A stretch of DNA of 64,000 nt, taken from positions 62,001-126,000 of the forward strand of contig QPGO01000008.1 in NCBI GenBank assembly GCA_008632985.1, read 5' to 3'. Of this stretch, positions 8,560-64,000 are shown one piece after another (positions within the stretch are counted from its first letter, which is position 1; the number at the start of each line of letters is the position of its first letter). A program made the position numbers and the translations under genes. The notes beneath the pieces are model-generated. The model saw nothing but the letters and a program-made list of their open reading frames with translations. It did no database searches and was not told the origin of the DNA. Source of the stretch: Psammoneis japonica (lineage: Eukaryota).

Positions 8560-11500
8560 TAGATGCGAGCATGCCATGTGCTCAATACCCATTGTCCGAC
8601 GCTGCATGGGATGGTGCATTGTTTTGCACGTGCCACACCCGCGCGGATAGATTTGAAAAATCTAGAGAGAGGGTCATTGGGTGGCCGAGTGGGCATGGTG
8701 CAACATCCAACATCTCCAGCTAAAGAGACTCGAAAAAGTGTTGCAATCAAAAAAATTCTTGTGAGAAGACATGCAAAGGAGGAGGCACCCAGCGCTGATC
8801 AGCGACTCTGCTGGCTGCTGCGCTCTTGGGTGGCGCGAGTTGCAACAACAGCCCCAGCCTCGCGCACCTGGCACACACTTGCTCTTCCCTCACACACGCA
8901 TCTCACAGATGATTTTGTCATTTTGCTCCATGGCAAAGCCATGGCAAAGCCATGAAAAAGGCCACCCAGGATCTTTGTCACACTGCAAGCACAAAAGAAG
9001 ACAGCAGCAGCATGTGTGGCTGCAAAAATGAAGGGGAGAGCCGGGAGGACGAGCAAAATGCCGCCTTCTGCTGCTGTGCACTTCTCACCCCAAAAAGAGA
9101 TTCAGTGCAAAGGGAAGCAGTTTGGGTTGACAACTGTTTTCATTCTCAAAGTTGTGCGGTCATCTGGCACTTTTGGCTGCACTGCTTTGCGCTGCATGTG
9201 TGAGTGCCGTCAACAAAAGCCGCCAGCTCTGTTGCAGATTCAGGCTTCTTGCTCACAAGTGGCTCGATGCGCAACAGACCTCTGTTGGTTTCCATGGCAC
9301 TCTGATTGGCCACCATTGATTGCATGATGATTGGTTGTTGTCACCTTGTGTGCTCCACAACACGACCCGCTTTTCTCTGTGGCTGGATTTTCTCAACTTT
9401 GCTTGTTTTTCAAGAACCCCGTGATGAACACAATCGCGCATGTCTGCTCACATTCCACCAAGCAGATGACATTGAACAGATCACTGCAATCTGACTGTTG
9501 TGCCTTTGAATCAAAAGAGCTGCAACTCCCATGCACAAAAACATTTTTCAATCATGTGTTGATTTGTGCCACAGCTCCTGTTCAGCTGTGCCACCCACAC
9601 CACAAGCCTGGGTGGTCATCAGCGACTTGGTGCTGCTCACATTGTGCATGTCACAACATCAACTCTCCAAAGGCCCAAGTCACTGTGCTCCCCAACTTTG
9701 AAATTCCACAACCCAAGTTGACAAAAAAGCTCAATGTCACATTTTGCATCCTTTTTCTTTGTTGGCACAAAAAAGAGCGGGCATGAAAAGATGACAAATG
9801 CAAGTGTAAAATGACACACCTGCAATTGGCAAATGCAGCACATTCCCCATGCTTTTTTTGCACACTGGCACAAAGAGGACAAGAAGCCACAGTTTGATGA
9901 CAGCACTTCTTGTTGTGTCCAAAGTGTGAGAGCAGATCTCCTCTCATCCTTGGGTGCTTGTGAGAAGTGTTGACTGAAAGTTGCTGCTGGCTTCAAACTT
10001 CAAGGTTTGAAACATGAGAACTGCACTCAACTTGCTGTGTTTGGGAGCAAGATCTCTGCAGATGAAATCTTAGACAGCACTCATTTTTGTTGGGACCCAA
10101 GTGTCTGGCTGGGCACCTGGCCCAGCTCTGACTGCAGCTGCGCTCATTTTTTTTAACTGTTGTTTTTTGTCTCTTGTGGCTGTCAAAATTGCTGGGCCAT
10201 GTGCCCCTGTGGGCTAGCTCTGTTTGCTTCTGGCATTTCTTTTGGAGCAGGCAGGCCAGGACATGAGGTGCATGACAAGGTTGATTGCAAAAATGCTGGC
10301 GCTGCTCAGGGCAAAAGACCTTGCACAAAGTCATCTCTGTGTCATCCCTTGAATGGCCACTCTGTTTGCCTTCAACTGGCTTGCACCACTGGAAAATGGC
10401 AAGTCCAAGAAGGCACACATCAATGCCCAGTTAAAAGTCCACACTTTTCTCCACCAATTGTTGGCATCTCTGAGAGCTGCCCAAGCCAATGGATCGCAGC
10501 CAGCAAAGGGAGGGGGGGGACAAGTTGCACATGCTGCACCAACTGTGAGGCAAGGTGTTGCAGTGCAATGTCTGGGTCAAAAGACTCAACAAAAACAATC
10601 AACAGAGCTGTGAACAGAGGATTGGGAGGGGTGCCTGCTGCTGACCAGCCATGCCACTCATCACTGGTCAGAAAGCCCCTTTTTTGTCAAGTGGGTGACA
10701 CACAAATGAGTGCCAGATGACTTGCTTGCTCACTTGCAGCATTTCATGCTCCAGATCCTTCACACTGGCTGCAAGTGGAAAAATGTGTCAGAGGAACAAA
10801 AAGTGCACATCAGAAGAAGCTGCCATGGCACTGGAAATGTTGCTTGGATTCCACATGATTGTGTGCAATGGATGTCTTCCAGACAGGCATCAGAAAAGAG
10901 CTGGGCTGTCTGAAATCCCAGTGCTTTGTGTGCACCATGTCTGCTGAAGATGACAATGATGACCGGCCATTGACGCTGCAGGCTTGTCATCATGATGCAA
11001 GAAACACAGGTGTGTGTGTGGAACAATTGGAGTGACAAGCATTGTTGAGTGCTGACCCTGGCTGTTGATGTGTTCATTTGTGGTGGGCTTCAGGTTGGTG
11101 TTGAGAGCAGTTTTGCTGTCTTTCCATGAAAAAACACACAGCGGGCACATGGGAGTTTAAAAACTGTGGGAAGAGTGCACGAAGATCCTCCTCATTGTCC
11201 AGAGCATCACACTTTTGGAAGTTGCACAACACAATTTGTTGTGAGATTCTTGACAACTGCAGTTCAGTTGTTGTGAGCACATGCTCAAAGTCTGGTGAGA
11301 GGTCGATTTCAATGCTGCAGCCGCTGCTGTCTCAACTCTCATGCTGACCTCACCCAGCCCGCCAAACCTGATCTCCACAAGAAGCTCCCAGCTGATGTGG
11401 GGTGCAGCTGCAGTTGCCCAAGTGGCTTGGCAACTGTTCCTGTGTTGACCCCAAGCACTTGACAAAGCATCTCATTGTGGTGTCAACAACAAGGAAAGAT

Positions 11501-11600
11501 CGACAGCGGAGAGGTTCAGCTGCTCATGTGCACTGATGACTGCTGGGCACAAAAAAATTGCCAATTCTGGCACTCGATGAAGAAGCCACTAGGTCAGAAG
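8560..11600. repeat. TpA- and CpG-depleted degenerate block, probably transposon-derived; family not identified; boundaries approximate
   Basis: Only about half a dozen TA dinucleotides by eye in about 3 kb. TG/CA excess. Overlapping, almost Tyr-free, Cys/His-rich ORFs in all frames. Confidence 0.6.
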
Positions 11601-12065
11601 CATGTGAGTCAAGCTTGTGCAATTGACTCCAGTCGCAGATCGATCCTTCACATTGGTTCTTGCACTCTTCGCACCCAAGTTCAGATGGAGACGACCTGCC
11701 TCAAGCCCTCCCAACGAGCATGACCTCTCGATTCATCGGACTGAAAGGAGGGCACCTCCGCTCGAGCCGAGTCGTCAAATCCGCAACAATACAATGGAGT
11801 CATTTTCCTTTGCAGCACAGAGAAAAGATAATAATTAGTCAAGTATCATCAATGTCTTAATGACTAGTTGTTTTTGCCATTAATGACCTGCGGTCATTCA
11901 TTTTTTATTGGCTCCCCGTCACAAAACATCTCGCAGTGCCGGTTTTGCTTCTCCTTTCTGGGCGATTGGCAACCACTTCGTGCATTATTTTCTGCGTTCA
12001 ATTCATTTTTCTTGTCTCTCTCAACCTTCCCACTTGCAACGATTATAACACTACATTATCCCAAC

Positions 12066-12628
12066 ATGACAATTAAAGTATTTACGTGTCTATTCCACTT
12101 CCTACTTTTGAGTTTGTCCATTGTTTCTTCCCAGGAGCAAGGTGAGACCTGAGACATTGTTCTCCAGGAATCAAATGAACCCTACCGTTCAAGTTCTCTC
12201 ACAGACGTTGCTCATTGAATCTCGTTTTAGTGGGGGGCATTGAACGGGCAGGCGATGCAATGTTCCAGCCGCCCATGTTGTGCAAGGAATACTATAACGA
12301 GGATCAACAAACGCTTTGTCGTCAGTGTCGTACGTGCCGTGGCATAGGTTGCTTCGAAAATGATCCGAATGAGAACATCAAGTGCAAGCGAAAGAACTGT
12401 ACGGACCCATTGCTAAAGTACACTTGTAGAAAATATCCGGATTATGTCAAACCGATTTGGATAAACGAGGGATGCAAGAGATATGTCGGCAAATCACCCG
12501 AGAAAAAGAAGTGCAAGTACTGTTACAAATGTCGCCGCCTAAAGTGCATGGAAGACGACATAACACGGCAACAAAAGAGGATATGCAAAAGCAGGTCATG
12601 CACGCCTCAAAGAATGGCTATTTGCTGA
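12066..12628 (+). CDS. Small secreted cysteine-rich protein with two Cys modules
   Basis: Signal exon MTIKVFTCLFHFLLLSLSIVSSQEQ followed by a phase-1 intron (GTGAG...TTTAG at 12230); then CRQCRTCRGIGCF and CKYCYKCRRLKCM. Normal Tyr usage. Confidence 0.75.
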
Positions 12629-12899
12629 GAACACTGGGCACGAGCGCAAAAAAATCGACGAAACTTTTAGCTGGTAGATAGTCTGTCATTAACGCTCTCT
12701 AACAGCTGCATCCCAATTATAAAAATCTCGACGGCTTTTGCCAAAATCACCATTTGCTTCCTCTGGGAAGTGGTGCCTGATTCGAGACAGAATAGAAAGC
12801 TTTCTTACAATGTTCGAAGCAAGTCTGTCTGTCATTTTCCATTCAAGGCTGGATTTCGATGCTTGTTTCAAGGTGACAGACGCCAGTGTTTCTTTTTTA

Positions 12900-15800
12900 T
12901 CCAAGTGATGGCTTGCTCAAGCTTCAAACATTTGAGTGGAATGGTTGCAATCTGTGATCCCAGTGGTGACTGCCAGGTGATCAATCTTCAGAGTGGCCAG
13001 CCAGTCATTGAGAACATTGCACTCTGTGCCTTTTTTCTCTCTGCGACTGGAGAGAACCTTTGGGGAATTGTCGACACAGCTGGGTCCCTTTGCCTTGCAG
13101 CCTTGACAGCACAGCTGCAATGACTGTCTGCTCTGGCCAAAGAGCATGTGTGCTCTCTGTCATTCAGGGGCACTGGCAGCACTCTTCACCACTGTCAGGG
13201 TCTTTCTTGTTTTTCACAGATTTCAACAAGCCAAAATCAGCTGGTCTGGCATGGCAGGGCAGGGCAGAGCAACCCAAAAAAGGGAGCCAGCAACATCTGC
13301 GCTGGCCCTCCAAGCTCCTGCTGTTGTCTTTCAAGGTCCTTCACTGAATGTGTTCTCAAACAGCACTTCTCACACTCACGGCAGTTGGCCATGCTGAAGA
13401 TTGCTGGAGGCAGACTCAAAAGAAAAAACTCTGTGCTTTGTTTTTGTGCTCAAGGGCTGGTTTGGGATTCAGGGTCAGACCTGATGCACAGTGTGCAATG
13501 CAGGGACATGCAGTCATGAGAGTGTGCAATTGTGCAGACTGTGCATGGCTCAGTGCCAGATGCAGTGCAGCCATGGGCTGCTTTGCCACAACAAAGCAAA
13601 GGCAAACAAACCCCTGTGCACATGCAACTTGAGATGCTTCTCCATTGCATTGCTGCAGCACGGTGTTCAAAAATGCACAATGCAAAGTGCTTTGCTGAGT
13701 TGTCTTGACAATGTGCTTCAGCTGAGCAGAAAACACTCTCTGGACCAAGGAACTGGAAAATTGCATGAGGAGGACTGCTCCAGACATGCAACTTCAGACA
13801 TGGCCAAACAGGTCTCATGGTGAACATGCCATCATTCCCAAACCCTCCTTGCAACCTCTGCATCATCTTTTTTCCATGCCAGCTGGCCCACCTGTCCTTT
13901 TCAAGGTGAGTTGCTTGTGGCGTGGATGTGTCTCATGCATGCTCCTCATCTCTCCAGCTTTTCTTCTCCTTCTTTTTCAGTGCAATTGTGGTGCCACACT
14001 TGTCCAATCCTCCTCCAAGAGCAATTCAATGAGAGTCATCAGCTGTTTCATCAATCTTCTCCATGTGCACCTTCAGCTCCTTTTTGAAATTCACAGGGAG
14101 TGCTGGTGGGCAGTTCTGACTGTGTGGCCCAAGGAGCTCAAAATGCCTCAACTTGTTGACCGGTGTCTGCGCACAAGGTGTTGACTTGCCCTTCATCTTC
14201 AAAGGATTTGAGATGGGTGGAGCATGGTGTTCTTGACAAATGTTGCAGCGCAGTGTTGAGACAACAAACAAGTGCTGATCTCATTCAAACAGATGACACG
14301 GCACCGCAGGATCAGGACTTTGGGCATCTTGCCATCATTCAACACAAGAGACATGCAAAATTCTGCACACTGCACAAAGTGCCAAAAAAGGGTGTGCAAT
14401 TTGGGGTTGAGGACGAGTGTGCAGCTGTTGCCCTGTTGGAGTGAGACCCAAACATGTGCCCAGTGTGAGAGCATTGAGAAAAGGGTCAGCCTCCTGCTGC
14501 TGCACCTTGAGTCAAAATTTTTGAGCCTTGCACCCTGTGAGACCCACACTTGGTCAAAATTGTTCAAAGATTGGTGGGACCTGGCACGCCCCTGCCAGCC
14601 CCCCCCAGAGAAAGGCAAGAATTGCTGTCCCCTGCTGCTTTTTTGGCTGATGCCATGTGGGAGCAAAAAGACAAACCAGCATTGCCCATTGTCTCACATG
14701 TTTGAAAATGGAGCAAACTTTTCTCTCCTGACACACTTTTGCCACAGGGGTGAGTTGTTTGAGAGCCAATTTTTGTTGACTGGCTTGAAACTGACATCAA
14801 CTTTCTTCTCTCTGCTCCAGACCCATGCAGGTGTTGGCAGCTTTTGTTGCATCTGAGTGCTGCAGTCAGCAAGTGTGGGTGCTTTTCTTGCACATGGCAT
14901 CACAAAGCTGAGATGGACAGAGAAAGCCAGAGGTGCAAGAGCCAGCTCCTGTTGTCATTTGTGCACAAGCTGTGGGTTGCAGCAGCTGTTTTGTGCAGTG
15001 CTGTGGAAAGCAGTGGCAGTTGCTGGAACAAACCATGATCATGCACTCACATGCTGCCACCAGGACAGATGTCTCATGTGTGGCTGCCAAATGTCAAGAA
15101 CAAGCAACGACCCACACTGAGCTCTGGATGTTGGATGGCACACCCAAGCCCCAGGCAGAACTCTGTGTGACACAGGCCTGCAGAGTTGTGCACGCAAGCT
15201 CCACAGCTCATTTGTTTTGGGTCAGGAATGTGCTTGCATGTGGCACAAGATGACACAACCAAGTTTGCAGCGCAGCTGTGCCTCTTCACACTTGAAATTT
15301 TTTAAAATCTGCCTGTGCACTTCACCACTCTCTCAAGACATTCAAGAGCAGCCATTGAGTGGGCTGCCCCCAACAAGTGCACTGCAAAATGGCACAAAAA
15401 CACTGCCAACATGTGCGCATGTGTGTGTGTGTGTGACGCACAGCACACAAAGCAAAAAAGCACCAATGTTGCAGCCCGGCAGCATGAGGCCTCACACCTT
15501 GACATCCCAAAGCACATTGTTGACTCACGTGCTCTTGCACGGACTTCTTTGTGGCTTTGATTGTGGCAGCACAAGGTCCTGCATGCAGAGCTGGAGCGCA
15601 TTGTTGACTTGTGTGCTCTTGCACTAATTTTTTTGTGGCTTCAATTGTCGCGCTGCACGGCTGGGCTGTGGCCAGCGGCCAGCCCATTTCATGAAAGACA
15701 GCCACCACACCAACTCCTCTTTAAACTGCCAACAGATGCCTCAAGACATCTTGTGAGCAGGTGAGTGGTTGTCGCAAACTTGGCCCATTTTTTGGCTGGT

Positions 15801-16060
15801 GCTCCAACGGACAAAGTGCTTTCTCAACTCATGAAAACCACGGACAAGCGAGCTGCGTGGATGTCAAAAGTTCAGAGAGTGAGAGCTGGGTGGCTTGGCA
15901 ACCGGAGTGAGATTTGTCAGTGAATGATGCTTGATGCCAAAGGGTGTTGCCCCATCCCTGGCTTTGTGGCACAGCACGGCCTTGCATGCATTTGCGTTGT
16001 ATCTGCATTGTGGCATCACAATGACATGAATGTGTGATTGACACATTGATGATGAATGTC
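12900..16060. repeat. TpA- and CpG-depleted degenerate block, probably transposon-derived; includes an 84-bp two-copy repeat at about 15512-15662
   Basis: About three TA dinucleotides by eye in 12950-15950. Spurious six-frame ORFs lacking Tyr. Confidence 0.6.
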
Positions 16061-17179: not shown

Positions 17180-19222
17180 TTACACAACATCTGGCTGAGC
17201 CGCTTTATCTGGATTCGCGTCACACGTTGCCTCCCGGGGGCACTGCCAATCTTTACACCATTTACCGTACCCACCTTCCTCGTAGCATCCCTTCCTGCAG
17301 CACCTGTAACGGCTTGCTTTCTGCCTGCAAGTGGACTCTTCAGGGCAAGCGTGTCCATCGCACCATGAGTCTGAGTTAGTTGTGTAGCACCCCTTACGGT
17401 GACACTGAGTACACATGTATTTGGGGTCACACTGGTCAAGCGGCAGGCACCTCATTGAAGCACAATCAGGAGACTTCTTATCTGCGCGGTTCGTGTAGCA
17501 ATACTTGCCGAGACATTCGGAGCAGCTAGCCGGTCTACCATCATCAGCTCTCGCGTTGAAACAGTCAAGTGGGCACTCCCAGTCATCACACCAACTTGAT
17601 TCATCACCGGGAGTAAAGCAATTCTTCTTCTTGCACTTTCTGCAACTGGCAAGTTTGGGACAGTCGGCTTCCTTCGGAAACTCGTTCTCCTTACACCAAT
17701 CAGAGGCATCTCTACGAGACCAACACTTCTCGCGACGCGCGACACTACAAACGGCTTTAGGTGGACACAAATTCTTGTCTTTGCAAGTGAATTTAGTGCA
17801 TGCCGCTGATGGGCCTCTGATAGCATAGCAGTTATCTTCGTAGCACTCCTGACAAGTCTTCTCTGGAAGACGCGACGGCGGAGGTGGCGGCGGCGACGGG
17901 GGGGAAGGGGTCTTGGGGTTAATATCCAGCGCACTTGGGGTCGAAGGGGTTCCGCTGCTGCTTGAATCACCACCGCTACTGGATCCACCACTGCTGGAGC
18001 CTGAGCCAGAACCACCACCGCCGCCGCCGCTGGATCCACCGCCGCTGGACCCGGAACCGGAGCCTTTGTCTTTGGTGCCGCCACCGCTGCTGGATCCACC
18101 GGTTCCGCCACCACTGCTGGATCCAGAACCGGAGCCTTTGTCTTTGGTGCCGCCACCGCTGCTGGATCCACCACCGGTTCCGCCACCACTGCTGGATCCA
18201 GAGCCGGAGCCTTTGTCTTTGGTGCCGCCACCGCTGCTGGATCCAGGACCGGAGCCTTTGTCTTTGGTGCCACCACTGCTGCTGGATCCACCACCGGTTC
18301 CGCCACCACTGCTGGATCCGCCACCGCTGCTGGATCCACCACCGGAGCCTTTGTCTTTGGCGCCACCACCACTGCTGGATCCACCACCGGTTCCACCACC
18401 GCTGCTGGATCCAGAACCGGGGCCTTTGTCTTTGGTGCCGCCACCGCTACTGGATCCACCACCGGTTCCGCCACCGCTGCTAGATCCACCACCGGAGCCT
18501 TTATCTTTGGTGCCACCACCGCTACTGGATCCAGAGCCGGAGCCTTTGTCTTTGGTGCCACCACCGCTACTGGATCCAGAACCGGAGCTTGAACCGGAAC
18601 CAGCTGGACCATGCGTAGTCTTGTAGGTGTCAGGAGCAACTCGATTCGCAGGACCTGGACCTGGGCGAGGTGCCGCTCGATTTGCAGGCCCCGGTACATG
18701 GCCACCACCGCTACTAGATCCAGAACCGGATCCAGAGCCGGAACCCGATCCAGAACCAGCTGGACCATACGAAGTTTTGTAGGCGTCAGGAGCAACTCGA
18801 TTCGCAGGCCCTGGACCTGGGCGAGGTGCCACTCGATTTACAGGCCCCGGTACATGCCCCCCACCGCTACTAGATCCAGAACCGGAACCAGCTGGACCAT
18901 ACGAAGTTTTGTAGGCGTCAGGAGCAACTCGATTCGCAGGCCGTGGAGCAGGGTAAGGTGCAACTCGATGAGCTGGTCCTTGACGAGGGCGAGGGCAAGG
19001 CGTAGTTCTTGTTAGTTTCCGCTCTTCTTGAGCATTTCCAATGCGTTTGCCTTCAATAGGAAGCAAAACAAGATATGAGACACATGAACCACGGAATACT
19101 CACTCCCCCAACCTTAAATTCACGAGGTTTTTGGAGAAGTCAAACAGCCTACCTTGCGCAACACTCGATAGCGAGAGAATCCCGATCGAAGCAGCCAAGA
19201 TCCACTTTCGATAGGTAGACAT
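17180..19222 (-). CDS. Secreted Gly/Ser-repeat protein with poly-Pro hinge and tandem C-terminal Cys modules
   Basis: Signal MSTYRKWILAASIGILSLSSVAQG; intron; GPANRVAP and GSGSSSGGGTKDK repeats; CQECYEDNCY, CRKCKKKNCF, CSECLGKYCY, CTQCHRKGCY. The 3' end may extend to 17110. Confidence 0.78.
17960..18975. repeat. Coding minisatellite (CTGGATCCA-containing Gly/Ser units and longer NRVAPDAYKTSYGPAG units)
   Basis: Near-identical units such as GCTGCTGGATCCAGAACCGGAGCCTTTGTCTTTGGTGCC recur many times. Confidence 0.9.
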
Positions 19223-32816: not shown

Positions 32817-32932
32817 GGTTGCCACCGCTTTGCCCATGCGTGCTTCGCATCGGGGATGGACGAGCGCGCTCCTGGAGTGAACGGTGGGTTCAAACCGCTG
32901 GTCGCGCGCTCTCTTCTAAAGTGATGCAAGTG

Positions 32933-34285: not shown

Positions 34286-34292
34286 GTGGAGT

Positions 34293-50152: not shown

Positions 50153-50349
50153 TACCGTATTGGCAATCCAAAAGCAAGTATTCATACACCAGTTCAAGTC
50201 ATCTGCGATGCGGGCCCTCTCTACTCTCTAGCTCTAGAGTAAAGAGAATCATATGGCAAAGACACCCTCCCAAGACGCCGTTCTGTTCTGCATTTTGAAT
50301 TGACTCAAGCGATGCTTCAAATTAGCGGATTTCAGTACGGATTTAGAAA

Positions 50350-51458: not shown

Positions 51459-51673
51459 AGCTACGGTAGTACAACACAAGACTTGGTAGCACTACCGAAT
51501 CTATTTTCTAAGAGATAAATGTAAATACGAATGCAGAGACAACAGAAGGCAAAAAAGAAACTCTAGGAAGTAAACTACAAACTACATTCATCTTAACCAC
51601 GTACAAAAGAGCATCTGCCGGTACGTGAATGTAACACTTGACTCTGATTCATGCTATTGACGACGCGTCTCCG

Positions 51674-52113
51674 TTAATGAGGGGGGCTCATCCAGAATAC
51701 AAAGCAGGCCCTGGGGTCATTCACTGTGTTGCACTGACCACATGTTTTGTGATTATTGGCAAGCTCCTCGTGGAAGAAGCAACCCGCGGCTGCGCAACGG
51801 ACGCAAGTGTGGCACACCTGCCAAGTAGACATGGAGTCTCTACTGCATATGGTCCCATCCAAATCAGGAGGCACAAGATTTTGATAGGCCTCTCCAAGCA
51901 CCTCCCAGCGTCTTGTGGGGAGATCTGTTTGACGAATACCACATCATAGGAACAGCGTCAGAAAGGCGAAATGAGAGAATATATTCAATTCACGCATTTC
52001 GCACATAACATCGTTCGAATACAAGACGTACCGGTACCTCCAACCTCGTAAGCACAAGCAAACCGAAGAAAGGCTCCGAGAAGGACGATGACAACTGGTA
52101 GGTGACGGGACAT
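51674..52113 (-). CDS. Small secreted protein with one Cys module
   Basis: Signal exon MSRHLPVVIVLLGAFLRFACA, phase-1 intron, then CHTCVRCAAAGCF...CGQC. Confidence 0.65.
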
Positions 52114-52472
52114 GGTCGATACAAGATCTAAGAAGCTGCGACTGACTCTGCAATTGTGATTGTGTTGATTAGGTCTTCGTTCGCCTGGCAAAATGTGAGG
52201 GGGTCACAGTGTCTTTTCGGTAAATAAGCCCTTCTTGTAATGACCAGTGTCCAATCAAAGGACATAGACTTTACAAAAGTGAAGACTTCTACGGTACAAT
52301 TTAAAAAATTATAATATGACTATCGTTTCTCCAAACTCTTGAACATTATATTATTGCCCATTTAGGAAGGGTCATTCTCGGAGTCATCATTATAATATTT
52401 GCGTGCTTTTAGCCACACAAAGATACCTCTGCCAAATTTGTGAAGTGCCACGAAGACAGTACGGTATCAGAG

Positions 52473-53014
52473 ATGGCGGCTTCAAAGGGACGACTTCTTC
52501 TCGTCCTTTTAGCTTTCCTGACCCTGTCAAGTTCACATGAGAAAGGTGAGGATTTGTAAAATCGTGTTTTGCCTTTGCGGCTACAGTTAGTACCGTGGCG
52601 CCTGCTCTATTTTATCGACAGACGTCAATGATCCGTTTCTGCTCATAATCGTATTCTCTGCCAGTACTTGTGAAAGCCGGCAGCAGAAAACGCATGCTAC
52701 AAAACGGGCCAAGGCACAATAAGATTCCAGTAATTCCGGTTGGCGCAACGAATTGGAACGATCCTGATAACTGGCAAGCGCGCGCGTCAGAAATCGTCCG
52801 CGTTCGTGACACTCTAGTGAAGCGCCTCCATCTTGATATGTGTGGAGAGCGGATCCCAGGACAAGCTAGACGATGGCGACTCTGCCGCAGAACGATCAAG
52901 TGCCTCCGCGCAAAGTGCATGACGGACCAGCCTTCTTTTCTAGGAAAGGGAAAGTGTAATAAGTGTTGGCGTATTTCAGTCGAAAACGTGATTGAATTTA
53001 TCCCGGCAGCTTGA
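52473..53014 (+). CDS. Small secreted protein with a divergent Cys module
   Basis: Signal exon MAASKGRLLLVLLAFLTLSSS, phase-1 GTGAG intron, then CRRTIKCLRAKCM...CNKC. Confidence 0.6.
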
Positions 53015-53089
53015 CGTACCGGTACAAGATTGATACCAGGAATAGGTAAATTAAGAAGATCTAGGAGAGTTCAAGCGCGAAAGCCCACA

Positions 53090-53982
53090 CTACTCTGGCG
53101 CTTTTTTCAAACTAGCTCTTGCTTGTCTTGAGAAGACAAACACTCCTTCCGATCCACTCGGTTCTTTCCATTCAAGTCCATGCCGCTGTGCGCATTCCAG
53201 TACCAGGTCGATATTGACGTTTCGTCTGACAAATGAAAGCCAAAACTCCCCTCTCACTCCATCCGGAACCATGAGCAGCATAACCGTGTCAAACAATGGC
53301 TCGATCACGGCTTCCACGTAGATGACGTCACTCGCAAGAATAACATCGAACCCCCGCGGGTAATCGGAAAGAAAAGATTCAACGTTATGCCCCCATAGAA
53401 GTTGTCGGCAAGAAATAGTCGCATTGTCGTTTCTTCTTTTAACGTTGGATGCGACATTAGCTCGCATAGCGGCCAGCGCGTCTGTATCACCATCTGTGAG
53501 AACTACATTCTTGGCATTCAGAAAGTGAGCAAGTAACCCACACAATCCCAAGCCTGCCCCAAGCTGAAAGCCATTGTGATTTAGCGATGATTATCGCAGT
53601 ACGACAGAGAAATCAGAATAGAAGTATTGTTTCTTACCTCCAGGACAATTTTACCCTGAATTGATTTTTGAGTAGCAATCATGAAGTTGCAAAGCAGAGG
53701 AGAGGCTCTCCAGAGTGTCAGTCCAGTGCTGCTAAGGATTTGTCCGTTCTCTGCCTTGACACCAATTATGACAATACGTATATCGTTTGGAAACTCAAAC
53801 TCGAATTCCTCATACCGATCGGGTTCGTTGAAAAGGTCGCCTGTGTCAGGTAATTCGCATTCGCCGTTTTCTACGTTGATCGCCTGACTTCTGTCACCGC
53901 TGTCGATCAGTCCCTCCGCCTCAATCCAGGGCTGCTCTTGTTCGCTAGGACATGTTTCGTTTTTTGTGCCAAACGTAGACAT
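53090..53982 (-). CDS. Protein lysine methyltransferase, Methyltransf_16 / METTL21-like; one intron
   Basis: TGLTLWRASPLL, IVLE/LGAGLGLCGL, VVLTDGD, LLWG and FDVILASDVIY. Confidence 0.88.
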
Positions 53983-54299
53983 GTCTATTTCGAGAATCAA
54001 TCTAAATACCTTGAGAAAACTCTTTGAAGACTTTTATGGCTACTAATGTGCCCGTTTTCTCACCAAGGATGACTGCAACAACTTAACATGAAAACGGTCA
54101 ATCAACACAACTAAATTACCGCAGCAGCAAAGATGAACGTATTTCTAGCAGTTTTGCGTTTGTGAATGGAAGATCACTCATCACTCATTGCACACTTTCC
54201 ATTCTACCTGAACGCGTCAACACATTCAACATCGCATCGCATAGCGTCGCTGTTCGCATTCTGAATTTTGATGCATTGCAATTGCCCTGTCGCGGTGCT

Positions 54300-56424
54300 G
54301 CATTTACGCGCGCGCGTGAACGTCACCTCAGCAGTGGCGCGGTGTGAATTACAGATGCTGGAACTTGCTGGGTCATGCATGTCAATCACATCAATCACAT
54401 GCATCATCGTCACATCATGTGCAGGAAAGCAAGGGTTCAGGTTTTGGGATGGGTTCGCGAGATGGGACTGCAGCTTGGTGGAATGGCAGGTGAGCTGGAC
54501 AGTCAGGGGTTTGGTGACCATGAGACTGAGGGCAGTGTGGCGGCGCAGCAGTGCGGCGCGAGGTGAGTGTGAGGCCAAGCCGGGTGTTGATGGGTTCTTC
54601 TGGGCAGCTGCAGCAGCGGGTGAGAGAGAGAGCTCCCCTGAGCACAACAATGACTGGGTTCAGGTGTGTGCAGCATGGCCAGGTGCGTGTTAAAAAGAGG
54701 ACTCGGGTGCTGCCCAGCAGGCTGGGGGGCTGCGCATGTGGGGTGGAGATGGGGGGTCATCTTGGTGTTGTTGGCTGGTTTGCTCTAAAGAGAAGGCCAT
54801 GGGGGGCAAAGCACCCTTCCTGGCACTGCCAAGTGGTCAAGGCAGAGATGCTTGCTTGCCTCACAGAACTTTGTGATTTGCGCGCAAAATTTTTGCTTTG
54901 GGCACTTGCACGTGGTGTGTGGCCTCAGCAAAAGGGCTGAGATTGGGGGCAGGCAAGCAAGGAGCTGGAAGGGGGAGAGGAGATTTGGTGACAGCTGCGC
55001 TGATGGCTGGGCAGTGGTGACCTGGGAGCAAAGCAGTGGAAGAAGAAGCAGGGGTGAGTTCTTCTTGGACACACACCAACATCAGCAGCTTGTTTCATGG
55101 GTGAGTGTGGGTGAGGTTTGCAGGCTCTTGGTGAGTGGCAGAATCTCACATGTGTCAGACAGCAGGCCAATTGTTTGAAGCATGCCAAAGAGAGCATCTC
55201 AGACAGCATTGGAGAGGTCAGTTTTGTGCCCAAGAGAGCAGCGACAGAGGGCACATGGTCATGACCATGTGGAGTGTGGACATCAGATGCACCATTGCAT
55301 GAGGTGCAGAAGATGTTGGGTGGCAGCCTGTGACCATTTCTGTTGTTTCACAAAAAACACCACAGCACATGCCAACCCCACTTCCCCATCTTGCTCTTGT
55401 GCTTGTGCAGTTGGGTCAATGTTCCTGCCTCTTGTTGCTTGTCTCTGCTCCATCTTGTGCCTCCACATGTGCTGAGAGGTTGTGCAGTGGCATCAGCGTT
55501 GCTGGCACAGACACATCAGAGTCCAAGTCATTTGAGCATTTCATGCAATGCTCTAGAGAAGCATCCTTCTTGCACTTGGCAACCTCATCTTTGTCCTCCT
55601 CCTGTGTCCTGTGAGCCCCCTCATCCAAGAATTCTGCAAGCGCATCTTCAAGCTGTGCATCAACATTGTCCTCTGTTGTTTTCTCACTTCTGTTGCTTGC
55701 TTTTCCTTGAGCTCTCTTCCTTTTCTTTCCCAACTTGCTGTGCTTTGCCTTTTTGACAATGTCGTCTTTTGTCTTTGTCTTCTTCCTCACCACAAGAACC
55801 CAAGTGACTTGTGTGCAGCAGTGCTTGTGATCCAGGGCAACACATCATTGGGACAAGGCATTGACCATGTCATGAATGGACTCCATTGCACCCTTCGTGA
55901 AGAAGCCAGTTGTTCTGCACTTTTGCAACATTTTCAAGGTGCGCACTGTCAGTTGGCAAATCTTGATGGCAGCAGAGCCAACGCAAAGCTCCCAGAACTT
56001 CTTGACATCTTCCTTGAACTTGTCAATGTCAGCATTCTCTGACATGTTGATGGATCTTAACCAAGGTGGGAGCTCTGCAAATGTGCCAAAAATCCCCTTG
56101 ATGCTTTTTCTTCTAACTCTGTTTTCACCTCATCTGACTCATCTTTGGATGCTTCCCACAAGGCACTGAACAACAAGCTGGAATTCTGCATCATTCTGAA
56201 ACAATCATTGCCATCAAATGATCCACCATGGAATGGGTTGTGCTGGGCACTGACAGGTGATTTGCTGATGATGGATTCCAGCATGCTTTCAAACTTCCCT
56301 TGGCCATGTTTCAGGTGTGCACCAATGTTGGAAAGCAGACCCTTGAGTGTGCAGGGTGCACTGTCTTGTTGCGATTGCTCTTGAGTTGAGCATGAAGTCA
56401 TCCAGCAGACTCACGCGCATCTCT
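54300..56424 (-). mobile_element. Degenerate RAG1/Transib/Chapaev-like DNA transposon, 3' part; left boundary approximate
   Basis: FHGGSFDGNDCFRMM (56057-56401) and GFFTKGAMESIHDMVN (55845-56045) resemble the GN and GxxSExxxES motifs of this transposase group. TA and CG are depleted. Confidence 0.6.
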
Positions 56425-56429
56425 GTGTG

Positions 56430-56705
56430 TGACAGAAAATGAAGGCAAATGGCAAGAATTCAAACAATGACTCCTCACTGCTGTCTAAACAGCAGATGAG
56501 TCTCCGCTCAGAGACCGTCACAGGAGCCGAAAGACGTGCAAGTCGGTGCAATCGGGCTACTGTTGTCATTCTTGTGAGCCTTGTGGCTCGAAAGCAAACT
56601 ACATCGCGCGTGAACGCGCGGAACTGAAGCACACAAAACTGTGCACGGTAAACTAAACAGCGCGCGACACTTCGTGCGCACCTGAATCCTGTTCAAATCC
56701 TGTCA
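56430..56705 (-). repeat. 3' LTR
   Basis: TGACAG...CTGTCA; 14 transitions versus the 5' LTR and no indels. Confidence 0.95.
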
Positions 56706-59700
56706 CTCCCCAGTTTGCTTGAGGAGCCACAGAAACAGATTCGACTTCGGATGGAATGAAGTTCCAGAACATGAGGGGGCGGAGAAGGTCCCAGATTTGG
56801 GAGCAACCCCAATGCTTGCTGAGAATGTCAGCAGGGTTGCGGGAGCCTTCGATGAAGTGGAACTCAAGGCAACCAGAGGCAATTGCCTCACGCACACGGT
56901 GGAACGACAGTGCGGTGTGTCGCTTGTGTAACTTGGAGTGCGGGATGGTGGCACTGTCTACAACCGACTTGTTGTCACCGAACATGTAACTAACGTTACG
57001 GATCGGGACGCCAAGGCAGCGCAGGGTGATGCGCAGGTCGACAATCTGCTCAACACAAGTCCTTGCGGCAACAAATTCAGACCCGTAGGTCGCAGTCTCC
57101 ACGGTGGCTTGTTTCTTAGAGAACCAATCAGCCGGGAATTTGTTGAGGAAGTGGAGCATTCCCATGACAGAGCGTCCGGTGAGCATGCAATGGCACAAGT
57201 TTGCATCGACGTAGTGGGTGGCAGTGACGAACTTGCCAAGGGGCGGTGGAGCGTCCTTCGGGATCATCTCTTCTGCTTCACCATACACGGAATGCATCCA
57301 TTCACAGGCCGGAGCAGGGAGATCCGAACAGTCGGGCTCTTCCGTACGAACGCGGAGAGCACCGTGTCGCATCTTGGAGAGGCACCCACAGACGCATTTG
57401 GCACGATCCAAGTGGCCTTGACGGGGCGCAGCTCGGAAGCTAGAGAGTGACATGACAGCCGTGGCAATGTCAATTCGACCAAGGGACACTGCCCATTGGA
57501 GTGAACCAACAAGAGACTGGAACTTGTGAATGCCATCGGGTCCCAGCAGTTCGGAAGTGTCCAGTTCGGGGAGGTCACCCTTCTCTAGAGGTGACAGGGC
57601 GTTGGTGGCAGGTTTCTCCCCAAACAGTCAGGCACAGCTGTCGACCATGCGCTCGATGTACTTGCACGGAGACAGGCACAAGGTTCCGTCGGGTTCCCGG
57701 GAAAAGTCGCAACCCAGATGGAACTCAATGGGTCCCGTGCCCTTGAGCTTGAACTTGTGCTTTTCCGTGAGAGTGTCGACGAAAGATTGAGGGTCCTTCA
57801 TGGCAATGGCGAGGTCATCCACATAAACGGCAATGCACTCACAGTGGTCGCCGTTCCTGCGCATCCAAATGTCGGGTTCGGCGCGGCAGGGGAAGAAGCC
57901 TTCAGCTCGCAGGCAGTCGGCGAAGCGCTCGTGCCAGCGGAGACCGGAGCTGCGCAGTCCATGCAGTGCCTTGTGGATGACAAGGATGTGTCCTTCGAGT
58001 TTGCCGAACTCGGGTCCAGCTGCAATGTAAAGCTTCTCCTTGGTGGTGGCTTCAAGGCAGGCATTGCCAATGTCGGTGGCCCATGTCTCCAACTCGTTGA
58101 GTTCGGCCAGGAAAATCATCAGCCGAAGGCCACGGAGGGAGACCACTCCGGAGTGGACACTGTCGACAGGTACGTCCATGAGGTGCCCGTCGGCTACGAG
58201 TCATGCCTTGTGGCGACCGTCGTGTTTCACATCGCACACCAGGTGCACTCGGATCTTCTTGTGTCCCGCAGGAGGAGTGGAAGACTTGAAGGGCCCGCAG
58301 TCATGGAAGACTTCGTATTCGTCGAGTTGGTCCATCTCGAGATTGGTTGCGTCTCCCCACTTGCGGTTGCCGTTGCGTTCGTCCAGTGACATGGCGTGTT
58401 TGTAGTTCCGGGGAACTTCGCATCCATGCTTGTAGCGGGGTGCAGTGCGGAAGGAGCGAAGCTTGGCTTGGTTGGCCATGCGAAATAGCTTCTTTTGGCG
58501 CCTCGCGATGGTGCGGAACCGCTTCCAGCCATCCGTGTCGAGGAGTCCGTTCTCTCGTGCATAGATGGCACAGGTGACGGGGTTGTCCTTGGCGATGATG
58601 GCAAGAGGCTCGGACGTGATCTCCCCACTTTCCCATTCAAGCATGATGTTGTAGCTGGAGCCTTTCCAGGTTGGGTCGTGAGGCTTCAGAGGTCCTTCGT
58701 GTGACACGATGCGTCGAAATTTCCAAACAGTGGTGTCTTCGTCTTCTTGCTCAATGTGATTCATGATGTCATTGCAGGCAAGGACTTCCTCGTATTCGTC
58801 ATTGTTGACAGAGCAGACGAACTTGGTGAGCTCGGGATTGCCGTTCACTTTCCATTCGTGGTCTTCGACGGCCTTGACGATGCGAGCTCTGTGGCGTTGT
58901 CCGTCCTCTTGTGGCTGCATGAGGAAGGTGCGTCCAATGATGTCTTGCGGATCGAAAACTGGCATCTTGGGTGTCCTGATCTCCCCATCAGGAGAGTCGA
59001 CGGGGTTGTCGTCATGGCGAGATTTGATGATGGGTTCAGGTGGCTCCCCATCAGGAGGATCAAGACGCAGGTTTCGAACGGCAGGATCGGGGGCAGCGGA
59101 GCGGACGTTGGACCGGTGGAGGATCTTCTGAGTCTCGTCAGATAGAATCTTGAAGGTCATCTGGTGGCCGACGTGCTCAGCAATGCCAACGAAGCGTCCA
59201 CGCAACTCACGGGATTCAGACGGCCAATCGGAGTCATCGAGGTGGAAGCACACGGGTTCCCACCAGTGAAAGCGAAGCAATGGGCTGATGTCCGGGGTGG
59301 AGCCAGTGAGAGTCTCGAGGGGCGTGCGCCAGTGGAGACGTGGGGACACTGTGTGGTTGAGGATGAAGCACACGCACATGAGCGCCAGCAGCCATGTGTG
59401 GGCAGGCGAACCAAAACGATCCATGACAGTGTTCGCCATGCGCTTCACGGTCTGGCATCGACGCTCGGCAAAGTTTTGGTGTTGCTGGTGAGGCTCACTT
59501 TGCCAGCTAGAGATGAAGAGGGCGCGCAGGATCCCGAGCACTTTGTTGCTGATCTCAACTTGAGCACGGTCGCCAATGAGTTTGGATGGGGCACCACGTG
59601 CACGGATCTGATCCTCGAGTGTGTTGACAAACTCTTTGTCCGTCTTAGCACCGCAGACGTCAGTGACGGTGGACTCGGTGCCAACAAACAGTTGGGCGCT

Positions 59701-62322
59701 GGTGCAACCAGAGTCGACGGCCGGGGTGTCGGCACAAACGGTGTCAGTGGCGATGGGCTCGTTGCGGCGGTGCACATTAAGGGCGGGGTTGGGTGATTTG
59801 CAGGCCTTGCGAAGGTGTGTGCCGGCGGGCATGCGGGCGCACTGCGTGGTGCAGTCAAAAGTGCGACGGACTGTGTCGGCAGGCAGGAAGCCAAAGTGAG
59901 GCCGAAGAGACTCGAAGGGGGGGTCCTTGGGCTGCACAGTGCACTCCGGAGGTGGAACGTCATCGCCCTGGGGGCCAATCGCATGCAGATGACACTCGTA
60001 GAACACGTCGTCGTTCGGAATGAGGTGATCATCGAGGGCGGACGCGTGATCGGCAGACAAGGAAGCGGACAAGATGGTCTCGTTGACAACGACACGATGA
60101 CGGCAGTTGCCGCACTCGTCAAACAGGTTGGCAGTGGGATCGTCCTGCAGGTCAGAGATCGCGTCGCACCACTGGTCGTCGTCAGTGACAGAGTGATCGA
60201 GGACGGAAGGGTCCCATGTGTCATCACCGGTGAGGATGACATGGGGCAGGGTGTCCCATTCGGCGTCAGTGCAAGGTCGCATGGCAACACAAGGCAGGCC
60301 AGCCTTGATGTCAATGGGGATGACACAGCCATCAGGAGTGGCAATGCGTTGCAAGCCGTTGGGCACCTTGACAGAGCGATCGTTGACATCCTGTTTGCAC
60401 CATTCGAGCTGGCCGCAGGAGTGGATGGTCTTGCCCTTTCCCGTGCATGCGCACTGATGGAGGATGGCGATGACGGGACCACGCTGGGTCTCAACAATGG
60501 CGCCAGCGGTGACAATGGGGATGTCCACCAATTGATGATCGTCAATGCCCTGAACGTCGACTTGGTGAGAGGTGCGTGCAATGACGCGAACGTCGTTGCC
60601 AGCAATGCCGCCGTTGGCCCCACGATTGACTAGAGCGCCAGTGCGTGTGGATCGATGAGCAGAGGCAGAGCAAATGACATTGTGGTTGTCAACGCGGCGG
60701 CAAGTGCGGCCGTTAAGTTCCACGTTATCTGCAGAAGCTGGCGGGGTAGAGGAAGCGGCGGATGGCCCCGGTCGACTGGCATTGGGGGCTTGGTTAGGAG
60801 ACAACAGACGTTGCAGATCACCGGGTGGCAGTGGCTTGCGCTTGGTGAGGTGCGCCAGGATGGGATTGTCCGAAGTGGCGTCCACATGTGGGGCGGAGTC
60901 ACCAGAGTCAGCAGGAGTCGTGTTGGACAAGTTGACATCACCGTCACTCCCAAGGCGTTGGTCGTGAAGGTTGGCCGCAACAGACTCATGGCAGTTGCTG
61001 GCTCGCGGGTTGCGGGGAGGTGGACGAGAATGCTCAAGGATGATCGCCTTGGAGGAATCGGGCAACGAATCCCAGAGCCGTTGGTGGTCGGGAGGGAGAC
61101 GTCTCCATTGGACACCGGTGAGGCTGGGACCGCGGGTGTGGGCAGCATTGGCTTGAAGGACGTCAACGTCACTGTCAATGTCGTAGAACACATCGTCGGA
61201 CGGTTCCTCGGAGTAGACGTCGTGTGCGCACATGGCGCGTCGGGGAGCTCGAGGTGTCGTCTTGGGTTGAAACGTGCTGTCGCACTGAGCTGCTGCGGAG
61301 AGGAGCAAGCCACAGTGTTGATCGCATGTGAGGCTCTTGCCACTCTGCGTGCGATGCTGATCAGCTTGGTTCTTGACAGCACGGAGTTCCTCGACAGGGT
61401 GCACGGCATTCTCGAGCATGACGCGCTTCTGTCCTTCAGAGAAGTGGTCACTGGCCGGGATGAGTGCCTCGTACTTGCGCAACTGATCTTGCCAATGAAG
61501 GATGAACCCGTGGGTCGGACCTTTCCAAGTGCCATCACCAAGACGCGCGGTGGTGAGGTGCGTGAGCAGGGTGGAGGACTCGACAGATGCGCGGGTGGAG
61601 GCAAGCGCGCACTCAGACAAGGAGCGGCAGACGGTCTGTGCGTCAGAAGACTCCACATTTTCGCGAATGAGAGCCTTGCCCTTGTCGGTGAGAAGGATGC
61701 GTTCGAAGACGGCGAACATGCACTTTTGCTGTTCAGCAAAGAGCAGTTTGTCTTCGGGGCTGGTTGGTTTGTACGACGAGTCTAGAATGCACTCGACGTC
61801 TTGGGCACGGGCTTGTGCCACAAGTGAGGTGTGCCAAGTGTGCCACTGCTTGTCGGATTTGAGAGCCGTGAAAGCGGTGGGATCACGCTTGATGCCTCGC
61901 TTGAAGTCCCGCACCGGGTCGCGTGCCTTGGTCGGGTTGGTGACATGTGGAGGTGCAAGGGGTGAGCTGCCGATGGACACAGAAGACATGCAGTCGGGGC
62001 TGAGGCGGCAGGCAAGGAGCTCGTCATGTGTGAACAAAGAGGAGTCGTTGGCAACGTCAAGACCTTTGTGTGCTTTGACAATGCACAGACTGACTGGTGC
62101 TGCTAACATGTTCTCACAACCACGGGGCAAAGGGATTGCATCAGTGCCGTTGTCGCACTCAAGCGAGTCGATTTGGGACGGCATGAACGTGAACAGTTCC
62201 TGACATGAGTCCGTGCCGTCTTGGGCCAAAGCCAAACGAAGAGGACTCCCAGCACCTTGGGCAAGCACGGTTCCAACCACGTGCTTGAAACCATCGGTTT
62301 GTTGCTGACGAGTGAGAACCAT
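56706..62322 (-). pseudogene. gag-pol polyprotein in a single frame with two TGA stops (58201, 57628)
   Basis: LVNRGANGG, IATDT..GDRAQ..NFAERR (integrase), DVKHDGRHKA, DIGNACLEA, AVYVDDL, ETATYGSEF, FGDNKS and NPADILSK. Confidence 0.92.
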
Positions 62323-63250
62323 GGCAGACAAAAATGGTGTCAGGACAATCAATTCTGGTTGGGAAGCGAAGGCAGACTCGAAACTTGGGTGAGAGTGGAC
62401 TTGACTTGAAATGGACTTGACTTGAAATCTTGAACTATCTTAAAATCAGAAGTCGCCGGGCTTTGTTATCCCGTTCGTTGTCAAGTGCTAAACTTCCCAT
62501 CCGGTCCGCCAGAGTTGTGCCGGCACGTCCGAACCCGCAGCCAGCGGCGCTTTGGGTTGCTTGCGAGCGGAGCAGCGGGTTGCAAACCCCTGCAGGCAAG
62601 CTGACCAGAGGTGGACAAGACCCCCGAACCGTTCTTATTTTATGTCGGTTGGATTTCCCGATTGGGCTGGCCAGTTGACGCAGGCGCCAGGCACTGTGGA
62701 CGAACGAACAAACGCGGGAAAGCACCCTCGCCCCAACGCAGGCTGCAATCACGGCTGCTTGCTCTCACAGTCATCCTCGTGGACCTAGTAGAACTGTAGA
62801 GCACCAGCAGTCCGGGGTAGATCAGGTGCAATGGACTCGGTGTGCTTGTAGAGTGGTGGCAAAACCGCAGTCCGAAGAGTGGGTACAGGTTCTTGGCCGT
62901 GAAGACATGTATATATATATATGTCTTCAGCGACGAAGATCCTTGAATATGTAGGGTTCTTGACCGTTAACCGATGAACAGGTATATCAAGGGATGAGGA
63001 TCAAGGATAGGCTTGGATATGACCGTTGAATGTATGTCTTCAGCGATCAAAGGTAGTATAATCAATCCAGATATCCAGCGGTAAGGAGACTTGACGGTGA
63101 CGTTAACTTCCTGCCGATGCCCTGGTATTGAATGCGCGTAGACTTGCCGATGTATGTAGAATATATACGGAGGTCCACGTAGAATTAAAAATAGCGTCGT
63201 TGGTAAATCAACGACGACGATGGCGGTTGCTCAATGGGTTGACAATGAGC

Positions 63251-63263
63251 AAGACTGCTAATC
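63251..63263 (-). promoter_or_regulatory. Putative primer-binding site complementary to a tRNA-Ser(GCU) anticodon arm
   Basis: GATTAGCAGTC abuts the 5' LTR on the element strand. Its complement GACTGCTAATC is the anticodon-arm sequence of eukaryotic tRNA-Ser(GCU). There is no TGG start. Confidence 0.55.
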
Positions 63264-63539
63264 TGACAGAAAATGAAGGCAAATGGCAAGAATTCAAACA
63301 ATAACTCCTTACTGCTGTCTAAATAGCAGATGAGTCTCCGCTCAGAGACCGTTACAGGAGCCGAAAGACGTGTGAGTCGGTATAATCGGGCTACTGTTAT
63401 TATTCTTGTGAGCCTTGTGGCTCGAAAGCAAACTACATCGCGCGTGAACGCGCGGAACTAAAGCACACAAAACTGTGCACGGTAAACTAAACAGCGCGCG
63501 ATACTTCGCGCGCACCTAAATCCTGTTCAAATCCTGTCA
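63264..63539 (-). repeat. 5' LTR
   Basis: TGACAG...CTGTCA; retains 11 TA dinucleotides that are absent from the 3' LTR. Confidence 0.95.
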
Positions 63540-63544
63540 GTGTG

Positions 63545-64000
63545 CTTGCAACAGCAATGCTTTGGCTTCCAAATTTGGCCGCACTTGATTTTGAGTGGCT
63601 CACAACAGCTCCCAAGCTTTGGGTCATTTCTCCTTGGTGTTCTCAAGATTCTTGCTGAGAGCTTGTTCTTGCTGCTTCAACTCAGCTGCGTGATTCAACT
63701 GGAGCTCTCTTGCTTCAACAAGCCTTTGGTGTTGAATTGAATTTCCCTGATCAATCTCCTGAACGTCTGCCACAAGGTTCTCCCATGCTTTTTTTGTTGT
63801 CCCAAGAATGATGTGCAGTGATGCAAGAAGCACCCTGTCAAAATCAACCAGAGTTGGAGGTCGGTTGATCACTGATCCATTTGTCTCAGCAGCTTGCTTC
63901 TGCTTCTTCTTGGTGTTGTGCTTTTGGATGTTGTTGAGTTGTTGCTTTGCCTCAGCTGCCATTTGCAGCTTCATTCCCAAATTCATGTGTCCTTCAATCT
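63545..64000 (-). mobile_element. Upstream part of the RAG1/Transib/Chapaev-like transposase, continuing beyond the window
   Basis: RVLLASLHIILG (LHxxLG motif) followed by a coiled-coil stretch. Same strand as the 55845-56401 fragments. No TA seen. Confidence 0.6.

Follow-up and report, generated by a model that had tools for sequence, protein, structure and literature searches.

A 64,000-nucleotide stretch of the Psammoneis japonica assembly (GCA_008632985.1, contig QPGO01000008.1, positions 62,001 to 126,000 of the forward strand; hereafter the window) carries two long retroelements and several further blocks in which the dinucleotide TpA is nearly absent and TpG and CpA are in excess. The blocks were delimited in the 64-kb window from sliding-window counts of observed over expected (o/e) TpA and of the other dinucleotides, from a list of TA-free runs, and from the TA positions. 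The blocks, the two elements and their long terminal repeats (LTRs), direct repeats and open reading frames (ORFs) are listed below in window coordinates.

8722–11589, no strand assigned: block B1; 6 TA, o/e 0.03; CG o/e 0.22; TG/CA o/e 1.91/1.76
12899–15999, no strand assigned: block B2; 3 TA, o/e 0.02; CG o/e 0.17
32643–38911, minus strand: tyrosine-recombinase (YR), DIRS-like retroelement, with 174-bp direct repeats at both ends, a reverse transcriptase (RT) ORF and a YR ORF
32745–38526 (approximate edges), no strand assigned: hypermutated tract of the YR element, drawn from the TA positions
32918–38525: interior of the YR element; 17 TA, o/e 0.08; CG o/e 0.76
32936–34315, minus strand: tyrosine-recombinase ORF (P0407), predicted-fold match to Cre; 451 homologues
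34296–37178, minus strand: reverse-transcriptase ORF (P0002); 4656 homologues, some with weak RVT_1 matches below the Pfam cut-off
48000–49238, no strand assigned: block B3; 0 TA in 1239 bp, o/e 0.00; CG o/e 0.20
54351–56429, no strand assigned: left part of block B4; 5 TA, o/e 0.04; CG o/e 0.20
56430–63539, minus strand: Ty1/Copia-type LTR retrotransposon of 7110 bp, with LTRs, a target duplication and RVT_2
56430–56705, minus strand: Copia 3' LTR, hypermutated; 5 TA against 16 in the 5' LTR
56706–62436, minus strand: Copia interior; 40 TA, o/e 0.15; CG o/e 0.90
62437–63539, minus strand: Copia leader and 5' LTR, a TA-normal island (o/e 0.89 in the leader, 0.85 in the 5' LTR) with TA-free DNA on either side
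63540–64000, no strand assigned: right part of block B4; 0 TA in 461 bp, o/e 0.00; CG o/e 0.17; TG/CA o/e 1.63/1.84

Outside the blocks, the remaining 40,045 bp of the window contain 1743 TA (o/e 0.63, frequency 0.0435). A first, sequence-only reading of this DNA had described TA-depleted, TG/CA-enriched blocks lying beside TA-normal DNA, and the counts bear this out, with an o/e of 0.00–0.15 against 0.63. The same reading had drawn its last block from 54300 to 64000. Depletion is found there, although the block is not continuous, since the Copia leader and 5' LTR at 62437–63539 are TA-normal (o/e 0.85–0.89). The longest TA-free run, 2405 bp at 12898–15303 in B2, would be expected to hold about 105 TA at the background frequency of 0.0435 (Poisson P ~1e-45). 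TG and CA reach an o/e of 1.3–2.06 inside the blocks versus 1.15–1.18 outside. The summed fraction of TA, TG, CA and CG is 0.24–0.26 in the named blocks and 0.22 in the 461 bp of B4 right, for a background of 0.243; a constant pyrimidine-purine sum is expected if transitions turned TA, and in the old blocks CG as well, into TG or CA. The o/e of AA+TT in the blocks (0.89–1.34 in 1-kb windows, 1.1–1.3 in B1–B4) lies in the same range as outside. Block borders against the TA-normal host genes are sharp, within 100 bp. Two kinds of block are distinguishable: B1–B4 have about 50% GC and a CpG o/e of 0.17–0.22, and the two long elements have 57–60% GC and a CpG o/e of 0.76–0.90.

The Copia element is bounded by 276-bp LTRs with TG..CA ends and by a perfect 5-bp target duplication, GTGTG, at 56425–56429 and 63540–63544. 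Its assignment to Ty1/Copia follows from an RVT_2 match (Pfam, E 1.3e-21) located downstream of the integrase; the integrase region itself has no Pfam match and was recognised via homologues only. The interior is a gag-protease-integrase-RT-RNase H reading frame with only two breaks, both TGA codons, of which the one at 58201–58203 sits at an arginine of the family consensus and fits a CGA>TGA change. The 1412-residue gag-protease-integrase ORF, P0001, has 659 homologues, with 50–63% identity among the 120 listed. The flanking B4 DNA is TA-free and CpG-poor on both sides of the element, which indicates that Copia inserted into an older relic. In the Logan contigs of a DNA run of the same organism (X1, possibly the source of the assembly itself), unique DNA has a depth of about 57–59, and the Copia family reaches a summed contig depth of 70,000–113,000, that of a very high-copy family. 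One contig of depth 66, approximately single-copy, joins 62541 to 63244 and leaves out 702 bp of the leader, so that some copies of the family appear to be without most of this TA-normal region. Another, of depth 63, joins 56152 to 63630 and leaves out 7477 bp; its shorter side is only 27 letters long, and it could represent an allele without the Copia insertion.

The direct repeats of the YR element (32643–32816 and 38738–38911, 174 bp) are 97% identical. The AlphaFold2 model of its recombinase ORF P0407 (mean pLDDT 79.5) matches the Cre recombinase in Foldseek (E 4e-6, TM-score by target 0.58–0.67). The combination of an RT, a predicted Cre-like recombinase and terminal repeats marks the element as a DIRS-like YR retroelement, and it contains no DDE integrase recognisable by Pfam, the only search made for one. 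NCBIfam and PDB sequence searches with the ORFs of the transposable elements (TEs) gave no match.

The identity of B1–B4 is less apparent. Pfam searches with 134 ORFs of at least 90 residues, and with 118 ORFs of at least 55 residues in B1–B4, gave only chance matches to small cysteine-rich domains; tblastn with 284 TE proteins of both families found nothing in these blocks; and comparison of the window with itself revealed no block-to-block similarity other than the two LTR or repeat pairs. B3 has a summed contig depth of about 1500–1600, against about 57 for unique DNA, which corresponds to some 25 copies or more, and the k-mer depth of B4 (one contig, depth 58.7) is that of single-copy DNA. 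B1–B4 are old relics lacking both TA and CpG, and B3 is repeated. The identifiable blocks had been attributed to three unrelated transposon classes. Two of these, Copia and the YR retroelement, could be identified; the third, a DNA transposon, could not, as no transposase match was obtained among the 134 and 118 ORFs and no inverted repeats were found in the two retroelement regions, the only ones scanned. Between B1 and B2, 1.3 kb of TA-normal DNA carries on the plus strand an ORF of 149 residues rich in cysteine and lysine (12179–12625) without Pfam match. It may be a gene of the host, or else DNA that arrived later and split one old relic; a search of 11300–13200 for an insertion signature gave nothing convincing and no terminal repeats.

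The low TpA content results from mutation and is not a native property of these elements. We aligned P0001 with 40 relatives using MAFFT and considered as conserved tyrosine columns those in which at least 80% of the relatives have a tyrosine. P0001 retains tyrosine in 5 of the 21 such columns and reads cysteine in 11, histidine in 4 and phenylalanine in 1. It retains 383 of 408 other conserved residues, including 19 of 21 lysines and 13 of 15 asparagines. Tyrosine codons (TAY) become TGY, cysteine, or CAY, histidine, by exactly the TA>TG and TA>CA changes. As a consequence, tyrosine makes up 0.78% of P0001 versus 2.9–4.6% of its homologues, and none of the 120 listed is tyrosine-poor. The YR element shows the same losses: P0002 keeps none of four conserved tyrosines (two cysteines, one histidine, one lysine) and reads CIDD where its relatives have the Y-x-DD box, and P0407 keeps two of five. 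Relatives are not equally TA-free, since 78 of 79 related Copia loci from metagenomes have a TA o/e of 0.49–1.02, and the claim that the pattern is mutational is therefore supported.

The remaining locus, on the 2671-bp contig L078 (1–2671), shows the signature itself, with a TA o/e of 0.09, a TG/CA o/e of 1.62 and a CG o/e of 0.57. It is 43% identical to P0001 and reads histidine more often than cysteine at the tyrosines of its relatives, a strand preference opposite to that of the window Copia. Similarly, three representatives of database clusters, P0394 and P0359 among the RT relatives and P0411 among the recombinase relatives, contain 0–0.5% tyrosine and raised cysteine and histidine; the RT box reads CVDD in P0394 and HVDN in P0359. 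Judging from their translations, these proteins probably stem from hypermutated copies in further public assemblies. Together with L078, they show that the signature recurs in independent data.

The two LTRs of a retroelement are copied from one template and are identical at integration. Those of the Copia element now differ by 14 bases at 13 sites, none of them a transversion. Read from the 5' to the 3' LTR, the differences are TA/TG at 5 sites, TA/CA at 6, TG/CA at 1 and CG/TG at 1, with no other type. Twelve of the 13 sites are therefore TA-derived, and the TA count is 16 in the 5' LTR versus 5 in the 3' LTR. About 70% of the TAs (11–12 of ~17) have been changed in one LTR, against 1 of the remaining ~240 positions. 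As the LTRs were identical at integration, the changes were made later, in chromosomal DNA, and they affected both strands. The proposal that TpA is altered on both DNA strands after integration is thus supported by the LTR pair (5 TG, 6 CA) and by the replacement of tyrosine by both cysteine and histidine. In the YR repeat pair, two sites read TA in the 5' repeat and CA in the 3' repeat, in addition to three transversions.

Comparison between copies agrees with these observations. Where the window reads TG or CA, there are copies in the X1 contigs with TA or with the other of the two products; among the differences listed, copies exchange CA for TG or the reverse at 57383/4, 58144/5, 59649/50 and 48549/50. 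In total, 243 of the 266 places at which contig copies differ from the window are transitions. The Copia and YR elements have lost 85–92% of the expected TA while their CG o/e is still 0.76–0.90. A second, slower decay from CpG to TpG or CpA runs alongside in the same DNA: 5 of 21 conserved arginines of P0407 read cysteine, histidine or glutamine. Diatom transposons are CpG-methylated via DNMT5a, according to PMC9998398. Fast TA loss combined with slower CpG decay would end in old relics free of both TA and CG.

Surviving TAs are not a random sample. An A precedes the T in 8 of their 152 half-sites (5%), versus 28% in the 78 relatives and 26% in host DNA (Fisher P ~1e-12), and the survivors are mostly CTA, TTAA and GTA(A/C). 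ATA/TAT thus appears to be the preferred extended target site. Since TA>TG and TA>CA changes never create a stop codon, reading frames remain open. The 5' ends of both elements are spared: the leader and 5' LTR of Copia (62437–63539), and the 5' repeat of the YR element plus about 210 bp beyond it. Relative to the first in-frame ATG of the respective reading frame, the tract edge of Copia (~62440; gag ORF) lies some 115 bp upstream and that of the YR element (~38526; ORF1) some 140 bp downstream. Within Copia, the gag region is more TA-depleted than the RT/RNase H region.

We consider it highly probable that these observations reflect a TpA-specific A:T>G:C change that strikes both strands of resident DNA after integration, is confined to transposon-derived DNA and proceeds far faster than ordinary decay. 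According to this proposal, a host process would convert A:T to G:C at 5'-TpA-3' on either strand of chromosomal DNA. It would act after integration, in tracts limited to transposon-derived DNA. About three quarters of the TAs are already gone from a Copia copy whose LTRs show no ordinary substitution. Tyrosine codons would become cysteine or histidine codons and TA-containing signals would be erased with the frames left open. The same DNA would undergo the slower CpG>TpG/CpA decay expected of methylated transposons.

Several points weigh against this proposal or limit its reach. Transposon targeting is shown for two blocks only, as B1–B4 gave no match to a known family and B4 is single-copy by k-mer depth. 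The sparing of the Copia 5' LTR and leader and of the YR 5' repeat also counts against it; later gene conversion could have produced this sparing. A codon-phase comparison with 43 relatives gave a cysteine to histidine ratio of ~3:1 at former tyrosines and mostly synonymous T>C changes at codon junctions, a pattern that could reflect some purifying selection or the higher GC3 of the family. The assembly may have been built from the very DNA run that supports the sequence. The speed is read indirectly, from the LTR pair. Finally, TpA is self-complementary, so the sequence cannot tell whether the A or the T is attacked.

Repeat-induced point mutation (RIP), as it occurs in Neurospora and other ascomycetes, has several of these traits: after integration, transitions at a particular dinucleotide, made on both strands, inactivate mobile DNA over tracts with sharp borders. 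However, RIP converts CpA to TpA, lowers GC and makes stop codons, whereas here TpA is destroyed, GC is raised and no stops arise. With respect to duplication, the Copia family is very high-copy, B3 is repeated, B4 is single-copy, and the most repeated part of Copia, the 5' LTR, is spared. Decay of 5-methylcytosine (5mC) is visible in the same blocks, as CpG>TpG/CpA changes, a CG o/e of 0.17–0.22 in the old relics, arginine replaced by cysteine, histidine or glutamine, and two Copia stops that are both TGA; but it cannot remove TA and is far slower here. It had been argued from the start that neither RIP nor 5mC decay can yield the pattern, and the loss of TpA with gain of CpA and TpG upholds this.

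The sequence-only reading knew of no description of such a system. One now exists: a 2026 preprint by Mettrop et al. (bioRxiv 10.64898/2026.01.13.699255) reports, in its main text, exactly this signature in Bigelowiella natans. Two viral regions integrated in its genome were followed in mutation-accumulation lines, where they change at ~6e-7 per site per generation, about 1000 times the background. A>G or T>C changes, every one at TpA, make up 230 of the 231 mutations there. In the genome as a whole, 124 clusters are TpA-poor and CpA+TpG-rich, and genes poor in TpA show an enrichment of RT and DDE domains. The inserts of nucleocytoplasmic large DNA viruses and virophages in B. natans and the blocks described here follow the same dinucleotide rule on both strands, local to foreign DNA, with TpA lost and CpA+TpG gained. 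As in B. natans, the changes in our window are TpA-specific transitions (12 of 13 LTR sites; 15 of 21 conserved tyrosines turned into cysteine or histidine) in TA-normal surroundings. The two cases differ in several respects. B. natans is a rhizarian with viral inserts, whereas here the host is a diatom-like stramenopile and the targets are LTR and tyrosine-recombinase retrotransposons. Depletion reaches an o/e of 0.00–0.15 here versus 0.45 in the B. natans viral region. Post-integration timing is deduced from an LTR pair here and from mutation-accumulation lines there, and here tract edges fall inside elements. The preference for ATA/TAT has no counterpart in the main text of the preprint, which a term search, supplements aside, found to hold no flank analysis; nor does that text mention diatoms, stramenopiles, LTRs or retrotransposons.

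In the literature on this signature, whether in diatoms or elsewhere, the B. natans preprint was the only report found. Term searches of two papers on diatom TEs (PMC2806351 and 10.1101/2025.10.24.684338) found nothing on transition bias, dinucleotides or deamination. The kind of signature is thus already known from one preprint, and what is new here is another lineage and other targets. The window adds a diatom host, retrotransposon targets, near-saturation, an ATA/TAT preference and spared 5' ends.

We infer that the process is an enzyme-driven genome defence. Its chemistry may be the deamination of adenine to inosine at TpA, directed by chromatin or RNA to the element body; this is our tentative first choice, held at slightly less than even confidence. 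An ADAT2-like DNA adenine deaminase was proposed for B. natans in the main text of the preprint (10.64898/2026.01.13.699255). No deaminase gene lies within the 64-kb window. Guidance of the tracts by transcripts or by the chromatin of the element body is a hypothesis.

The alternative that survives best has the thymine of TpA attacked instead, for example by TET/JBP-type oxidation to 5-hydroxymethyl- or 5-formyl-uracil. A thymine oxidised in this way can pair wrongly with G; the result would be T>C, seen as A>G on the opposite strand. Because TpA is its own complement, such a T-directed process would fit every observation equally well. Glycosylase repair of the oxidised bases would, however, be expected to leave some transversions, and the Copia LTR pair has none. 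We regard thymine oxidation as unlikely.

Error-prone patch synthesis of the DNA polymerase eta type (WA>WG), recruited to silenced chromatin, had been put forward as a candidate, and TA is a hotspot of this polymerase in antibody hypermutation. Flanking bases do matter in the window, where survivors avoid ATA/TAT. But ApA, the other half of the WA motif, is left intact (AA+TT o/e 0.89–1.34; lysines kept at 19 of 21 columns and asparagines at 13 of 15), and the changes are pure transitions driven to near-saturation, without transversions in the LTR pair. This candidate is accordingly disfavoured, and we judge it highly improbable.

Editing before integration, either by an ADAR-like enzyme on element RNA or by a deaminase on single-stranded cDNA with insertion of the mutated copies, fares no better and has very little likelihood in our estimation. 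The resemblance to APOBEC3 and ADAR editing in animals is that of a deaminase-type hypermutation of retroelements with a neighbour-base preference. In its favour, the block edges are sharp, and the spared 5' leader and 5' LTR of Copia recall the gradient that APOBEC3G makes on retroviral cDNA. The main text of the B. natans preprint (10.64898/2026.01.13.699255) discusses the preference of ADARs for a 5' U. These enzymes act on RNA or single-stranded cDNA, before integration and on one strand, whereas here the LTRs of one insertion differ at 13 sites, 12 of them TA-derived, and both strands are changed about equally (5 TG, 6 CA). The heavily changed 3' LTR and the stronger depletion of gag than of RT/RNase H both oppose a gradient set up on single-stranded cDNA. 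In B. natans, moreover, the signature arises in resident single-copy DNA during culture, according to the same text (10.64898/2026.01.13.699255).

Errors of base calling or assembly on modified DNA, and likewise a native TA-avoiding composition of the element families, can be practically dismissed: although the assembly may itself have been built from the sole DNA run found, a k-mer assembly of X1 reproduces 50093–56456, 6.4 kb that include the unique TA-free block B4, with 3 differing letters and at normal depth; the unrelated metagenome contig L078 shows the same signature; and native avoidance is rejected by TA-normal relatives and by the loss of conserved tyrosines, including that of the RT Y-x-DD box.

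A broader version of the deaminase proposal can be conceived, in which a guided DNA-editing immunity operates across the SAR supergroup, at least in diatoms and chlorarachniophytes, and an adenine deaminase is steered to new retroelements and viruses by transcripts or chromatin marks of the element body. We consider it doubtful. Such a system would explain why the promoter-bearing 5' LTR and leader are spared, why the body and 3' LTR are saturated and why ATA/TAT is the preferred motif.

If TpA-directed editing of resident transposons is confirmed, the process would extend beyond a single species and beyond viral inserts, and deaminase or oxidase genes common to hosts with the signature would offer a comparative route to the enzyme. 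Base-editing research would also have an interest in an enzyme from nature whose substrate is the A of one defined dinucleotide in double-stranded chromosomal DNA. Many diatom repeats may escape annotation through the loss of their tyrosine codons and TA motifs, which would explain the unidentifiable blocks. The signature could serve as a marker for inactivated elements, and dating by LTR divergence would badly overestimate the age of edited copies.

The host genes of the window have few introns. For the RCL1 gene, all 9 organism-named homologues among the 120 listed are from diatoms (Cylindrotheca, Nitzschia, Seminavis, Thalassiosira, Odontella and Eucampia), with 55–62% identity. This assigns the window to a diatom or a near relative and excludes Bigelowiella as its host. 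Three sequencing runs were found, all of one sample. Contigs of a second run, X2, which is labelled 'DNA?', leave out two stretches of 107 and 119 bp (51924–52032 and 52543–52663) with CT..AC and GT..AG ends. X2 looks like a transcript library and the skipped stretches like host-gene introns, to judge from these ends. The X2 contigs do not cover the TE blocks and say nothing on TE expression.

A TA-free stretch at 17977–18448 has ordinary TG/CA content and is separate from the hypermutation signature. It corresponds to a GC-rich internal repeat of a host ORF, a minus-strand frame of 639 residues (17183–19099) without Pfam match. The GC-rich internal repeats of this ORF, at 17957–18969, are 71–85% identical to each other and account for this 471-bp TA-free run.

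At least five ORFs (4216–5172, 19985–21037, 24382–27636, 29158–30696 and 45459–46565) match Peptidase_M64, the IgA peptidase M64 family, with E-values of 1e-7 to 1e-11. Their DNA is similar among the five and also to the ORFs at 3455–4704, 39527–40195 and 43594–43816; in this diatom-like host they form a local cluster of paralogues from a metallopeptidase family that is mostly bacterial.

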